This document shows positions 7,059-13,011 of a stretch of DNA of 30,836 nt, piece after piece (within the stretch, counting starts at the first letter, position 1; each line of letters begins with the position of its first letter). The position numbers and the translations under genes are program-made. This DNA is from Armatimonadota bacterium (GTDB lineage: Bacteria > Armatimonadota > Armatimonadia > Armatimonadales > Armatimonadaceae): contig JAYUUO010000201.1 in assembly GCA_043754515.1 (NCBI GenBank), forward strand, positions 1 through 30,836, read 5' to 3'. The notes under the pieces were generated by a model. That model saw only the letters and a list, made by a program, of their open reading frames with translations, did no database searches and was not told where the DNA came from.

Positions 7059-7852
7059 ATGAAATTTGTTTCTTTACCGCGAATCATGGCGGGCGGTTTG
7101 TGCGCCGCCGCGATCTGTCTCATGCTCACAAGGGGCGCGTCCGCGCAGAACACGAGCCTTTCTTATTGGACCTTTAACCATGTGACGAACGGCACCACGG
7201 ACGTAAACAGCGCGGTTCGAGCCAATCTTTTCACGGTGAATGGCGGCGTAAACCAGACGCAGGCGACGATGAGTTCGTCACGGATGGCGGCGCGGGAAGC
7301 GAGATCGGCATCACTACCTTCCAGGGCACCAGCGTGAATAGCACGCTACCCGATGGCGGGGTACAAACAGCGGGTCAGGACTTGGGTCTTACGGGCGGGG
7401 TCGGGGCGGGGAGCACCAACAACAATAATAAGAGCCTCACGTTCGGCACTTCCAGTTCCGGTTATGAAAACGTCGTCGTGTCGTTCGCCAGTAGGCGCAC
7501 CAACACCGGGTTCAACAGTGTCCAGTTCGCGTACTCCACGGACGGGAGTAACTTCATCAACTTCGGATCGTCCTACACGCCCACGTCGAACTACACGGGG
7601 TCCTTAAAGACTTTTGATCTGTCGTCCGTCGTGGCGGTGGCGGACAATCCGAACGCGCTGTTCCGCCTGACGTTTAACGGCGCGAGCGGGGGCGCGAGTG
7701 CCGACAACAACCGCTTGGATAACATCCAAATTAACGGCACGAAAATCGCCGTAGCGGTTCCCGAAGCGGGGGCGGGGATTCTCGTGATACTGCCGGGGGT
7801 TGTACTCGGAGTCTTCGCCCTATGCCGCCGCAAGATCGGGAGCGGGACATAG
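7059..7852 (+). pseudogene. PEP-CTERM (VPEA variant) surface protein, frameshifted near 7270-7280
   Basis: Signal peptide ending GASAQ in 7059..7337. The Ser/Thr/Asn-rich beta domain continues in another frame (FVTDGGAGSEIGITTFQGTSVNST...NNRLDNIQING) and ends VAVPEA + TM helix + RRK. The 794-nt span is 1 nt short of a whole number of codons. Confidence 0.8.
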
Positions 7853-7883: not shown

Positions 7884-7904
7884 TCGCGAATTTGAAATTC
7901 GCGA
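7884..7904. promoter_or_regulatory. Perfect 21-bp palindrome TCGCGAATTT-G-AAATTCGCGA upstream of the secretin operon
   Basis: 10-bp arms with a 1-nt centre, extendable by G-U pairs to 7880-7908. Operator versus RNA hairpin is not resolved. Confidence 0.6.
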
Positions 7905-8020: not shown

Positions 8021-9505
8021 CTGTCTGCCTATCTTCCCGATAACTCGTCTCGCCTCGCGCCTACCGTGCTCCTGTCCGGGGCAATCGTCATCTCGCTACT
8101 CGGCGTTGCCACCGCGAACGCGCAGGATAATGTGAATCCGCCGCTTCCTCCCGCCGCGCCGGGGGTACCGGTCGCGTCTAAAGCCGCGTCGCCCTTGCCC
8201 GAACGCGGGACTTACCGCGTCACCGGCTCCGCCGAGAAGTTGTCTGTGTTCGCGGTGTCGGTAGACGCCCCCGAACTGTTCACCGCCATCGCTTCAAAGT
8301 CCGACCTGCCGCTCCTCGTGGACGATTCCGTCTCGCGCCGCATCACGATCAACCTGAAGGACCGCCCCGCGCGACAGATAATCACCGACATTTGTAGCGC
8401 GTACGGGTTGTCGGTCGCCGATGTCGAGGGCGTGACCATGATCAGCGAAGGCATCCCGCGCTCGCCGTCCTCGTACCTGCTGTCCGATATAGTCTCCGTC
8501 CCGACCAAATATGTGATCGCGGCGAACGCCCGCACTCTCCTACCAGTGTTCTTGCAAGATTACGTGAAGGTGAACGCCGAGCAGAACGCGGTCGTGCTTT
8601 CGGCTCCGAAAGAAGTGCTGGAAAAGTTCCGCCAGGACATCGCGCAGTTCGACATCCCGGCGTCACAGATCGTGCTCGATCTGCTTCTGGTCGAGCTGAC
8701 CGACACGAACCTGGACGAGTTCGGGCTGACGACTAGCAACCTCACGGCCGGGCAGGGTCCGGCGATCAGCGCGGCGGACGGCACGATCAAATACCTGCGC
8801 TACGCGGCTACCTCGAAGGAGTTCACCGCGAGTTTGACCGCGCTGATCCAAAAAGGCAAGGCGCGTGTCCGCGCCAACCCGCGCATCGCCACCGTGTCGG
8901 GCCGGTCGGCGAGTATTTTCGTCGGTCTGCAACGCTACATCGCGACGCCGATTGATAGTGGCAACGGCGGCTCCAGCAACAATATCGCGGCGGGCGTCCG
9001 GCTGAATATCACTCCCTACACCGGCGGCACGGGGCAAATCCTCGTCAATGTCAATACCGAGGTGTCAACGCTGTCCGCGCTCGACCCGCTGACCAAGTTG
9101 CCGGAGAAAAGCACTCGTACCGCCAACACCACCGTCCGAACCGGCGACGGGCAGACTATTGTGATCGGCGGCTTGACACAACAAGAGTCGCGTAGCGTCC
9201 GCAACAAGATCCCGTTCTTCGGCGACATACCGTTCTTCGGGCCACTGTTCTTCCAAAGCAAGAACATCCAGTCCACGGAGACCGAACTCGTGTTGTTCAT
9301 CACGCCGCGCATCCTGTCCGACTCGGGGCACCTGCCCGGCGCCGAGGAGCAGTCGCTAAAGGATCGGTTCCTGCGCTCCGATCTGAACAAGCCGTTGCCA
9401 CCCGCGCCCCCGCTGGTCAATCCGCCGTTCCCCGACTCGCTGAGACTACCGAAGGACGCAACGCCGAAGCCCTCGCCCGTCGCGTCGCCTGGGGGCAAGC
9501 CCTGA
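8021..9505 (+). CDS. Secretin paralog 1 (GspD/PilQ family; N0/STN-like, N3-like and secretin core)
   Basis: Signal peptide ending ANAQ; ANPRIATVSG, GVRLNITP, ANTTVRTGDGQTIVIGGL, KIPFFGDIPFFG.LF, TELVLFITPRI. The ORF track starts at GTG 8066; an in-frame CTG at 8021 follows AAGGA. Confidence 0.92.
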   Translation: MSAYLPDNSSRLAPTVLLSGAIVISLLGVATANAQDNVNPPLPPAAPGVPVASKAASPLPERGTYRVTGSAEKLSVFAVSVDAPELFTAIASKSDLPLLVDDSVSRRITINLKDRPARQIITDICSAYGLSVADVEGVTMISEGIPRSPSSYLLSDIVSVPTKYVIAANARTLLPVFLQDYVKVNAEQNAVVLSAPKEVLEKFRQDIAQFDIPASQIVLDLLLVELTDTNLDEFGLTTSNLTAGQGPAISAADGTIKYLRYAATSKEFTASLTALIQKGKARVRANPRIATVSGRSASIFVGLQRYIATPIDSGNGGSSNNIAAGVRLNITPYTGGTGQILVNVNTEVSTLSALDPLTKLPEKSTRTANTTVRTGDGQTIVIGGLTQQESRSVRNKIPFFGDIPFFGPLFFQSKNIQSTETELVLFITPRILSDSGHLPGAEEQSLKDRFLRSDLNKPLPPAPPLVNPPFPDSLRLPKDATPKPSPVASPGGKP

Positions 9506-11307
9506 ACGCCCGCGCCGTCTCCCGCCGACTCGTTTCATGGGTGCTGTGTCTTCTGGCGTTCCTCGCGCCGGTCGCCGCCCGCGCACAACTGGCGCGGTCG
9601 TTCTATAACATCACGGGCATCGAGACTAAGGTGCTACCGAACGCGGTGCGGATCACAATCCAGACGGATGGGGACGCGAAGCTGGGCGTGGATGTCAAAG
9701 AGTTCGCGACGGTAGTCGGCACCAGTAGCGACGATTTCTATGTTACCGACGCCTTGCCGAAAACATCGCTTCGGTTACGCTTCGCCGGGGCGCGGCAGAA
9801 GATCCCTGCCTTCACGGAGATCGGAGCCTACCCGGTAGACTCGGCCGTGGTTCGCCTCAGCCGCGATAAGTTGGCGTTCCCACTTTTCGAGGACGGGAGT
9901 GACCCGACACAGGATGGCTCGGGGACGCCGGGAGTTGATCTCGAAATTCGCCTTTACGTGCCGATCAAGGTGACTTATTTTACGCTCCGCTTCGACCGAT
10001 ACTACCCTGGCTGGACCCTCTCTTACCCGGCCGTCCTCAATCCGCTCGAAGCGAGTATCGTCGTAGCACCCGATAACCGCTCCGTGGTGATCACAGTGAT
10101 GACCGACCGGGTAGAAACGGCACGCAACGAGGGGCGGCTCCGCCGCTCCCCGCCTGAAGGATGGCGGCACCGGCTCGCGGTGACTGGCGACGCCGGGCGA
10201 ATGAGCGTGGACGCCCTACACGCGACGCTGGGCGAGACGCTAACCGAAATCGCCCGCGTCTCCGGCCTTTCGCTCGAAGCGCAACCCGACGCCGTGGAGG
10301 CGGACGTTTCCTCATTCCTCCCGGAAAGTACTCCAGAGGCGAGTCTCCGGTCGCTAACACGCGGCCTAGGGTTGACGCTGACGGCGCGGACGCCGACGGA
10401 GGGCGGCGGGTATCTAGTAGGACGCTTCGGAACCAGTCTGCTGACTGAACGGTTGCCGGTGCGCAATATCGCCGCCAGCCTCGCGCGGTCGCTGTTCCCC
10501 GATGTGTTGCTACCGTACCTGCACGTGGACACGGAAGGAAACGCCCTGATCGCGACTGGCTCCCCGGCACTGATCGCGCGGCTCCGGCATGACATCGCGG
10601 TGGTTGACCGCCCCTCCGCGCAGGTCCGCGTCGAGGCGCAAGCCTACGAACTCAGCTACCCCGAGGAGGCCGCCTTCGTGATCAGCGGCGCGGTGGACGA
10701 TGGGCGCGTCGGCTGGGACGGTGACGCGGGGCAAATCACGGTCGCGCTCAAAGCCGGTCAACAGAAGTCAGTCCGGGCGCGGCTACAAGCGCTGATCACG
10801 AAAGGGCGCGCCTGGCTCGCGGCACGCCCCGAACTGGTGGTCACCTCCGGCAAGACGGGCACGTTATTTATCGGCCAGACCCGCTACATAACGATCCGGG
10901 TTAACAATTACGGCGGAACGACGGCGACGATTCTGCCGCTGATGGTGGGGACGACGCTGAAGGTGACACCGACGACCAGCGGGGAGGGCGGGGCGGTGTT
11001 ACTGGACCTGCAACCGAACTTCTCCACCGTGGACTCTATCGAAGCCGGGACGGGTCTGCCGACGCTTGGCATCCGTCAGGTGAACAGCCTGATCCGTGTT
11101 CAGCCCGGCGATAGCGTCTTGATAGGCGGTCTCGAAGAGCGGACTAGTTCACGCGCCCGGAACGCGGCACGTCCGTTCGATTCCGTTCCCTTCCTAAAAG
11201 ACGTCTTGGCATCACGCCACGACCAGGTGACCAGGGTGTCGCTCGTGATTTTCGTCTCCGCGCGGATCGTTGAAGACGCGCCGCGCCCGAAAGAAAAGAA
11301 CCTTTAG
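9502..11307 (+). CDS. Secretin paralog 2 (divergent; AMIN-like N-terminal domain)
   Basis: Signal peptide ending AARAQ; ITGIETKVLPNAVRITIQTDG; ARPELVVTSG, GTTLKVTP, VQPGDSVLIGGL, SLVIFVSARIV. Probable CTG start overlapping the paralog 1 stop (CTGA); the track start is GTG 9541. Confidence 0.88.
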   Translation: MNARAVSRRLVSWVLCLLAFLAPVAARAQLARSFYNITGIETKVLPNAVRITIQTDGDAKLGVDVKEFATVVGTSSDDFYVTDALPKTSLRLRFAGARQKIPAFTEIGAYPVDSAVVRLSRDKLAFPLFEDGSDPTQDGSGTPGVDLEIRLYVPIKVTYFTLRFDRYYPGWTLSYPAVLNPLEASIVVAPDNRSVVITVMTDRVETARNEGRLRRSPPEGWRHRLAVTGDAGRMSVDALHATLGETLTEIARVSGLSLEAQPDAVEADVSSFLPESTPEASLRSLTRGLGLTLTARTPTEGGGYLVGRFGTSLLTERLPVRNIAASLARSLFPDVLLPYLHVDTEGNALIATGSPALIARLRHDIAVVDRPSAQVRVEAQAYELSYPEEAAFVISGAVDDGRVGWDGDAGQITVALKAGQQKSVRARLQALITKGRAWLAARPELVVTSGKTGTLFIGQTRYITIRVNNYGGTTATILPLMVGTTLKVTPTTSGEGGAVLLDLQPNFSTVDSIEAGTGLPTLGIRQVNSLIRVQPGDSVLIGGLEERTSSRARNAARPFDSVPFLKDVLASRHDQVTRVSLVIFVSARIVEDAPRPKEKNL

Positions 11308-13011
11308 ATGATGATCACTATGACTCTTCGTGCATATCGTGCTATTTTCGCCGTGCTACTGATGGCATTCGCGGTGTCCGCATCCCCTCCGGCGCGAGCG
11401 CAAGACGACTCCTCGGGCGGGTCCGGCAGTGCGCTGGGCGCGGCTGTCCCGTACACCACGATCACCAGCGTCAAGGCGATGCCGCTCTCGAACGGCGTTC
11501 AGATCATGATCACCGCCGACGGCGTTCTCGACTACCGGAACAGCGGCGGGGACGGCAAAAACATCAGCCTCTCATTCCCTTCCGCGCGCAACGGCACCGG
11601 TAAGAACTTCTTCAACGTCAACCGCTACCCCGTCTCGCATATCTCGTTGACTACGCCGCAAACGACCACCAACGGCATCGGGCTGAACCTGACCATCTTC
11701 GACTTCACCGTCGCCAACTCACGCGTCTCCTCGACCCAGGATAAACAGGGCGTGCTGATAACGGTGCTCTCGGACCGAACCATCGAAGGCAAGCGCGGCG
11801 CGGTCGTCGCCGGTGTCGCGGAGAGTGCCGGTAAGCCCGATACCTCGACACAGGTGACGTTCGCGAACGGGCTGGTGTCGGTCCGCGCGGTGAGAGCCGA
11901 TATTCACGCGCTGATGGGACTGATCGCACTAAAAACCGGCATTTCGGGGGCGGTGGACGACGCGGTGGACCGCAAGGTGACCGTGAACCTGCGCGACGTC
12001 GCCCCGGCAATCGCCATGCAGAGCATCGCGACCGCGAACGGCCTCGCGCTCTCGCGTCTGGGCGATCTGTTCGTGCTGAGCGAAGGGGTGCCGACCGATC
12101 TCGCGACCTACCTTGTTTCCGGTACGCAGTCGTACCGGATGCAGAACACCAAGGCGGACACCGCGTCCGGCTTGCTCCCCAACTTTCTCTACTCGTACGT
12201 CAAAGTTAACCCGGAGCAGAACGCCGTGGTTGTGTCGGCGCCCTCGCAGATGCTGGCGAAGATCGGGCAGGATCTGAACAAGGTGGATCTGCCGTCCCCG
12301 CAGATCATGATCGAGGCGGTCGCGGTGGAGTTTACCGACAACGTCAGCCGCGACTTGGGTATCCTGATCAACAACACCGTCAGCACATCACTGTCGAACT
12401 TCGACAGTTCGAACGGGATATTCAGCTACGACACCATCGGCAAGCTTCCGCAAAGTTTCGCCACTACGCTCCGCGCCTTAGAAGTGAGCGGCAAGGCGCG
12501 GGTTCGCGCCCGCCCGCAGTTGACGGTCGTCAACGGCAACGCCGCCAATATTTTCATCGGGCAACAGCGTTTCATCCAAACCCAGACCAACAACTTCGGG
12601 CAGACGCAGACCCGCATCCAGCCGGTTGACGTCGGGGTGAAACTGTCCGTGACGCCGCTGACGGGTGGCAACGGCGAGGTGACGACGACAATCGCGCCCG
12701 AAGTCTCCAACATCACCGAGCAGGATCAGTTGACGGGGCTTCCCGTGCTCTCGACCCGCAACGCGAACACCACGGTTCGCGTCCACGACGGCGAGACCAT
12801 CGTCATCGGCGGTCTTACGCTGAATCAGGAGCAGGTGACCGACAGCAAAGTCCCGATCCTCGGCGACATCCCTATCATCGGCAACCTGTTCCACTCCCGG
12901 AACAAGACGCGAGTCCAGACCGAGCTAGTGGTTTTCGTCACGCCACACATCATGAACATGCCGCCCCCGGCTCCTCAGACGAAGGTCGTGCCGCCCGCCA
13001 AAACGCCTTGA
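11308..13011 (+). CDS. Secretin paralog 3 (AMIN-like N-terminal domain)
   Basis: ATG directly follows the paralog 2 TAG. Signal peptide ending ARAQ; ARPQLTVVNG, GVKLSVTP, ANTTVRVHDGETIVIGGL, KVPILGDIPIIGNLF, TELVVFVTPHI. Confidence 0.94.
   Translation: MMITMTLRAYRAIFAVLLMAFAVSASPPARAQDDSSGGSGSALGAAVPYTTITSVKAMPLSNGVQIMITADGVLDYRNSGGDGKNISLSFPSARNGTGKNFFNVNRYPVSHISLTTPQTTTNGIGLNLTIFDFTVANSRVSSTQDKQGVLITVLSDRTIEGKRGAVVAGVAESAGKPDTSTQVTFANGLVSVRAVRADIHALMGLIALKTGISGAVDDAVDRKVTVNLRDVAPAIAMQSIATANGLALSRLGDLFVLSEGVPTDLATYLVSGTQSYRMQNTKADTASGLLPNFLYSYVKVNPEQNAVVVSAPSQMLAKIGQDLNKVDLPSPQIMIEAVAVEFTDNVSRDLGILINNTVSTSLSNFDSSNGIFSYDTIGKLPQSFATTLRALEVSGKARVRARPQLTVVNGNAANIFIGQQRFIQTQTNNFGQTQTRIQPVDVGVKLSVTPLTGGNGEVTTTIAPEVSNITEQDQLTGLPVLSTRNANTTVRVHDGETIVIGGLTLNQEQVTDSKVPILGDIPIIGNLFHSRNKTRVQTELVVFVTPHIMNMPPPAPQTKVVPPAKTP

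Follow-up and report, generated by a model that had tools for sequence, protein, structure and literature searches.

Layout of the secretin gene trio

The sequence analysed here (the window) is a stretch of 30,836 nucleotides with 62% GC from an Armatimonadota genome (G000, contig C201), which contains three consecutive secretin genes on the + strand, named S1, S2 and S3 for their position in the operon. These genes encode real secretins and form an old, self-contained cassette of the Armatimonadota. As the original prediction had stated, the secretin domain (PF00263) was found in each of them above the cut-off of 27.5 bits (129.1, 82.4 and 154.7 bits for S1, S2 and S3), and fold matches to secretins were obtained for the S1 and S2 models; Secretin_N (PF03958) gave a weak match, below its cut-off, in the three proteins. 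Pairwise identity within the trio is 28-39%. The features are the following:

8021..9505, + strand: S1 secretin, with signal peptide, Pro-rich spacer, N0, conserved linker helix, N3 and secretin domain; the amphipathic helical loop (AHL) is intact and is followed by a C-terminal helix motif and a Pro tail; AMIN is absent
8537..8596, + strand: N3 segment common to the trio, in S1
9326..9373, + strand: S1 C-terminal helix motif (GHLP..EE..L..RFL), possibly S-domain-like by its position
9502..9505, + strand: CTGA stop/start overlap between S1 and S2, which requires a CTG start
9502..11307, + strand: S2 secretin, with AMIN, N0, N3 and secretin domain; fast-evolving
9604..10110, + strand: S2 AMIN-like domain (model residues 22-190)
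10492-10551, + strand: N3 segment common to the trio, in S2
11305..11310, + strand: exact TAG/ATG abutment between S2 and S3
11308..13011, + strand: S3 secretin of 567 amino acids (aa), with AMIN-like, N0, linker helix, N3 and secretin domain; the AHL is intact and is followed by a short Pro tail; the most complete paralog
12172-12231, + strand: N3 segment common to the trio, in S3

Two candidate starts were found for S1, CTG at 8021 (494 aa) or GTG at 8066 (479 aa), and for S2, CTG at 9502 (601 aa) or GTG at 9541 (588 aa). The abutment of S2 and S3 is as originally described, while the CTGA overlap is conditional on the CTG start at 9502. This start is plausible: the n-region of S2 is then basic, and S1 and S2 overlap by 4 bases, with an NTG start, in 19 of the 37 complete cassettes (from 36 genomes) that were read gene by gene, CTG being used in two of these. 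In the same cassettes, the start codon lies at most about 20 bases from the upstream stop at 33/37 and 27/37 junctions. No sigma-70 promoter match was found, and terminator matches were at chance level. The Pfam scan of 31 window open reading frames (ORFs), out of 121 mechanical ORFs of at least 80 aa, gave no ATPase, platform, pilin, PilMNOP or pilotin family, in agreement with the earlier reading that the window holds no secretion partner gene.

Distribution and retention in the Armatimonadota

The trio-core profile (threshold E 1e-66) had matches in 126 of 401 genomes of the phylum and in 69 of 205 genera, with three matches in 87 genomes (where adjacency was only partly checked), two in 28, one in 6 and four in 5. 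The occurrence is patchy, including 3/25 genomes in the family of the window, 21/23 in family f5 and 0/33 in family f8. The order S1-S2-S3 is the same in the 37 cassettes read, and in each of them, across many families, S2 has an uninterrupted reading frame of 528-704 codons.

Of the 28 two-match genomes, 19 have three adjacent genes including one found by the S2 profile, in five more each gene of the trio is seen, whole or in fragments, at contig ends, and three are missing one gene precisely at a contig end. In the remaining genome, G046 (L050 and L142), unrelated genes come after S1 and S2, and its S2 is S3-like, with the AHL retained and 51% identity to an S3; this is a possible two-gene version of the cassette. 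As for the single-match genomes, the secretins of G121, G255 and G316 fall outside the trio clade in the tree, that of G162 is of the same type as G121, that of G170 resembles G162 (by likeness, outside the tree), and G301 has a cassette cut by contig ends. Two cassettes each were found in G326, G367 and G386, and G031, G032 and G038 retain all three genes although S3 is separated from S1-S2. Retention of the trio is near all-or-none. Neither strain-specific occurrence nor variation in the number of genes, the outcomes that the original prediction had set against itself, was found across the phylum.

Named relatives belong to the Armatimonadota, except for unassigned 'bacterium' labels and one S2 match, which is Fibrella in one source and Armatimonadota in another. 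An S1 orthologue is present in a cultured species (P0291, CCAX7_24460 of Capsulimonas corticalis). The search of plasmids gave one distant match, of 26% identity.

Phylogeny and age of the trio

The tree (IQ-TREE, LG+C20) was built from the N3 and barrel regions of 94 rows, comprising 22 cassettes and 28 other secretins; the genes were labelled by position beforehand, and the tree used sequence alone. Each of the positions S1, S2 and S3 formed one clade in 22/22 cassettes (support 100/100, 98/99 and 99/97), and the three position clades together with the secretin P0067 formed a single clade (99/94), separate from the PilQ-type secretins. The same three groups were recovered with FastTree on 291 rows, with weak support for positions 2 and 3. 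No paralog grouped with the PilQ/GspD-like secretins of its own genome, an arrangement that had been named in advance as evidence against a distinct system. Since each position is its own clade across families, the duplications are ancient, and the local duplication in the genome of the window that was originally suggested is not upheld. The cassette L076 of family f27 nests among f1, f2 and f5 cassettes in the S1, S2 and S3 subtrees, and the two cassettes of G326 fall on different branches, which suggests transfer of the cassette as a unit, taking family labels as a proxy for the species tree.

Closest to the trio in the tree lie lone secretins from Armatimonadota, Bacillota, Aerophobetes and Fibrobacterota. 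The N3 segment was thought to be private to the trio; it is present in all three proteins, and Armatimonadota, Bacillota and Aerophobetes have sister secretins with looser forms of it. A secretin of 570 aa, P0067, branches at the base of the three clades; it is seen only on short contigs and may mark an early form. One query of a sister family gave three short contigs with a lone secretin 3' of sugar oxidoreductase-like genes. Among the trio's nearest relatives, the single secretins of L116-L118 (G162, G255 and G316) lie behind a secreted protein of 516-606 aa and one or two pilin-sized secreted genes, in stretches with no obvious motor gene.

Division of parts among the paralogs

S1 and S2 were folded as models, and S3 was read through its whole-length alignment with S2. 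The order in the S2 model is AMIN (22-190), N0, N3 and secretin, and in the S1 model N0, linker helix, N3, secretin and C-terminal helix, with the N3 fold recovered in both. The absence of an AMIN-like domain from the first paralog and its presence in the other two, as noted before for the window, holds across the cassettes (0/37 S1, 37/37 S2 and 36/37 S3, with profiles built from the same rows; in the S3 missed, a mechanical ORF start left the domain outside the scored part). The AMIN domain of the S2 model matched AmiC (4bin; Z 10.1, root-mean-square deviation (rmsd) 2.9, 103 aligned) and the B2 domain of PilQ (4aqz; Z 9.5, rmsd 2.6, 100 aligned).

The C-terminal tail motif, searched as a regular expression, was found in 34/37 S1, 15/37 S3 and 0/37 S2, and the aligned range of S1 extends to the C-terminal end of GspD (5w68) and ExeD (6i1x), as judged from range ends only. 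The Pro-rich tails reported for S1 and S3 are present in the window (14 of the last 40 residues of S1 and 7 of the last 18 of S3) but vary among relatives, and what is conserved at the C-terminus of S1 is the short helix motif before its Pro tail. The linker helix between N0 and N3 is absent from S2 in the window and its closer relatives. S1 and S3 have their own conserved residues at 14 columns, half of them within the linker and N3. Median identity is 0.53 for S1, 0.27 for S2 and 0.52 for S3, and S2 evolves twice as fast. A Sec-type signal is present in the trio, and the lipobox is rare.

Loss of the amphipathic helical loop in S2

In two papers (PMC8134430; PMC6140923), the AHL is described as a family signature that is essential for insertion. 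Its motif was found in 37/37 S1, 37/37 S3 and 78/81 other secretins, and in 17/37 S2. The segment is 45-46 residues long in all S1 and S3, and 38 or fewer in 13/37 S2 (four of these 13 measured by eye, where the profile alignment ended early); this shortening by at least 7 residues requires 7 changes on the S1 and S3 tree. The S2 of the window has a worn form of the loop. S2 keeps a barrel-lip segment of 51 residues, equal in length to those of S1 and S3, as well as the last barrel strand, and thus still fits a barrel.

Type IV machinery and search for partners

The genome of the window encodes five secretins, the trio and two others (PilQ), each of which terminates its own pilMNO(P) cluster. 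It also has 12 matches to the T2SSE family, several PilB/PilT genes, four PilC/GspF genes for its two PilMNO(P)Q clusters, and 72 N-methyl pilin-like genes. Type IV machinery is therefore encoded elsewhere in the genome, and the trio is additional to it. PilC was found in 80/80 genomes and a PilC-type platform in 50/50 cassette carriers, which makes this survey uninformative on the independence of the trio from type IV machinery. With PilMNO(P)Q, PilC, PilB/PilT and pilins in the genome and PilC in every carrier, the standalone pore put forward originally is unsupported as such.

No conserved neighbour gene was found across 50 loci, the commonest family being Gfo/Idh/MocA (11 loci), and NCBIfam names, obtained for 69 of 139 listed flanking ORFs, were miscellaneous. 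When the PilM/N/O proteins of the genome were used as queries, no match was obtained in 51 loci. In 67 Armatimonadota genomes, N-methyl pilin-like genes number from 14 to more than 100 each (highest count at least 103), with no carrier/non-carrier split, and TonB-dependent receptors number 0-7 in carriers and non-carriers alike.

A PEP-CTERM-like secreted gene lies directly 5' of S1 (window 7059-7852, + strand), broken across two frames, with its signal peptide and sorting motif in different frames and a shift near 7260-7290; it is either an assembly error or a pseudogene. Between this gene and S1 there is a perfect inverted repeat of 10 bases separated by a single base (7884-7904), possibly an operator or terminator; TCGCGA-N9-TCGCGA sites number six in the genome. 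In G239, a trypsin-like PEP-CTERM gene sits between S1 and S2 (L131:8242-9261). The idea of a PEP-CTERM link, which came from these two genes, was rejected: such genes lie within 3 kb in just 1/37 loci, their density is 0.48 vs 1.25 per 100 kb in G000, and the exosortase (PF09721) is absent in 5/5 f5 carriers (G078, G102, G113, G123 and G140).

Comparison with known secretin systems

The layout AMIN-N0-N3-secretin of PilQ (6w6m from V. cholerae, 6ve2/6ve4 from P. aeruginosa and 4av2/4aqz from N. meningitidis) is shared by S2, from its model (6w6m: Z 10.9, rmsd 19.0, 292 aligned), and by S3, from its profile. However, PilQ is one gene at the end of pilMNOP, while here there are three paralogs, S1 without AMIN, and no pilMNOP alongside; the trio scores far below the PilQ cut-off (TIGR02515; 134.8, 63.8 and 146.9 vs 284.35), and the PilQ of the same genomes form a separate clade. 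With GspD/PulD (5w68, 6i1x and 6hcg), the trio shares the secretin barrel and N3, and in S1 the C-terminal helix appears to occupy the position of the GspD S-domain. In contrast to the N0-N1-N2-N3 of GspD, the trio has just N0 and N3 and a short lip; its scores are 142.2, 71.9 and 169 against a cut-off of 351.35 (TIGR02517), and neither GspC/GspS of the gsp operon nor any conserved neighbour is found alongside. For SctC of the type III secretion system, MshL, HofQ and Amuc_1098, the trio is likewise far under all NCBIfam equivalog cut-offs.

The phage and Tad proteins pIV (7ofh) and RcpA (8odn) ranked first or close to first among the fold matches of the short barrel (Z 11.1 and 12.0 for pIV). 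Both are single genes of phage or Tad systems, and they are not known to have an AMIN domain. The sister orphan secretins (L091-L093, P0153, P0138 and P0143), on the nearest branches, have a similar linker helix and N3; they are uncharacterised and stand as one gene per locus wherever their loci were read, in some cases next to genes of pilin-like and chaperone-like type. These chaperone and pilin genes have no homologue in G000, 8 query proteins from L116-L118 giving no tblastn match at E 1e-3, a limit that very distant homologues may escape.

By analogy, the nearest precedent for the trio would be the mitochondrial T2SS-derived (type II secretion system) pair GspD and GspDL, in which, according to PMC8134430, a normal secretin paralog stands beside a particularly divergent one; its authors suggest an elaborated pore and do not show co-assembly. 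That pair differs from the trio in being eukaryotic, with split genes and two C-domain paralogs. The mixed rings obtained in vitro came from variants of one secretin only, and liposome assays of such rings exist (PMC4604470). No description of an operon with three secretins, or of a secretin that is naturally heteromeric, was found in the literature, although subscription papers and genome-survey supplements may hold mentions.

Proposed assembly and alternative explanations

It is proposed here that S1, S2 and S3 probably build one heteromeric ring as non-interchangeable subunits, a mixed ring of the kind offered among other options by the original prediction; on sequence evidence, it is favoured by the loss of the AHL in S2 and by the fixed split of parts among the paralogs. 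The three stable position clades, the near all-or-none retention, which holds even where the operon is split, the gain of whole cassettes and the closely spaced junctions also speak for it. Coupled translation would give roughly equal amounts of the three proteins, which after Sec export would assemble via N3 and the barrel into repeated S1-S2-S3 units, four or five such units assuming a ring of 12 or 15 subunits as in solved secretins. The AMIN domains of S2 and S3 would tether the ring to the peptidoglycan (the fold comes from the S2 model). The amphipathic loops of S1 and S3 would drive membrane insertion on behalf of S2, which would then be free to lose its own loop, and the C-terminal helix of S1 may staple neighbouring subunits in an S-domain-like manner.

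Within this mixed-ring proposal, there is about an even chance that the assembly docks in trans onto type IV filament machinery from other loci of the genome, where it would be reserved for the export or uptake of a single class of pilin-like fibre or of the cargo of that fibre. Docking in trans appears the most likely arrangement given the N0 domains, the PilQ-like layout and the lack of machinery of its own; the main alternative is a motor-free gated pore. A further version of the mixed ring, tentative and clearly less probable than the general proposal, has an obligately heteromeric (S1-S2-S3)n ring whose asymmetry is functional, with the loop-less S2 forming repeated seams or asymmetric docking sites in a gated pore for macromolecules that moves between genomes as a self-contained unit of three genes and requires no dedicated machinery.

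Several points weigh against the mixed ring. Contact between the S1, S2 and S3 proteins is deduced from their genes, and the conserved operon order would also fit separate rings in one pathway. S3, having every part, could form a ring alone. The AHL motif is kept in 17/37 S2, including the worn form of the window, so help from neighbours is not always needed, and the separation of S3 from S1-S2 in one lineage indicates that coupling is dispensable. G046 (96% complete, 9% contamination, about 250 contigs) lacks S3 in its assembly, and frameshifts break the S1 of G032 into three pieces. PilB/PilT were found near just 1/51 loci, and counts of pilin, PilC, exosortase and TonB-receptor genes are alike in carriers and non-carriers. 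In PMC3230066, mixed secretin multimers are considered likely nonfunctional and cells are said to avoid mixing. The score of the predicted S1+S2+S3 complex (N3 and barrel, 37-row alignments, S2 scored) was 0.00 in two runs in which the controls failed to fold, and it carries no weight for or against the mixed ring.

A rather unlikely explanation, and still the best of the competing ones, is that S3 and/or S1 make ordinary homomeric rings and S2 is a degenerate accessory, which might act as a scaffold during assembly, tether the ring to peptidoglycan or occupy one seam position per ring. The low median identity of S2, its loss of the AHL and linker helix, and the presence of all parts in S3 agree with such an accessory role; however, in the 37 cassettes S2 still has its barrel at full length with the lip and the last strand, which exceeds the needs of a scaffold, and the retention of both S1 and S3, with distinct conserved N3 residues, is left unexplained.

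The solved secretins are known as homomeric single-gene rings of 12-15 subunits, which speaks for three separate, co-regulated homomeric channels, each dedicated to its own fibre or cargo within a single pathway, as do the abundant N-methyl pilin-like genes of the phylum and the four platforms against two PilMNOPQ sets in G000. This is improbable, as an S2 without its AHL is expected to be unable to insert alone, and one-by-one gene loss would be expected, yet there is one possible case among the 28 two-match genomes. It is very improbable that S2 forms a second ring outside the membrane plane, in the stacked or double ring once suggested, for which no support was obtained: S2 has repeatedly lost the membrane loop and has fewer lip aromatic residues (3.4 vs 5.2 and 4.7 in S1 and S3), but its lip is as long as theirs, and N0-N3 below the barrel in all three would hinder head-to-tail stacking. 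Redundant duplicates with a decaying S2, in line with the long S2 branches and the broken S1 of G032, are largely refuted by the open S2 frame in 37/37 cassettes and by a duplication older than the spread of those families.

If the mixed ring is true, its presence in about three of every ten sampled genomes of the phylum, with one subunit that has repeatedly dropped the insertion signature of the family, would overturn the rule of single-gene rings, and a pore of mixed subunits would be the first shown for the secretin family. It would also raise the questions of how many amphipathic loops a ring needs for insertion and how ring asymmetry relates to cargo or gating.

Other features of the genome

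Beside one of the PilQ genes of G000, a 244-aa gene with only an STN domain and a Gly-rich tail lies directly 5' (L006:7706-8440, C86). A fusion of sigma-70 region 2 with two MshEN domains (L112:8689-10248, C305) adjoins a T2SSE-family ATPase. The gyrase A frame (L115:1-6162, C1) is longer than 2000 codons and contains three intein and three LAGLIDADG matches.

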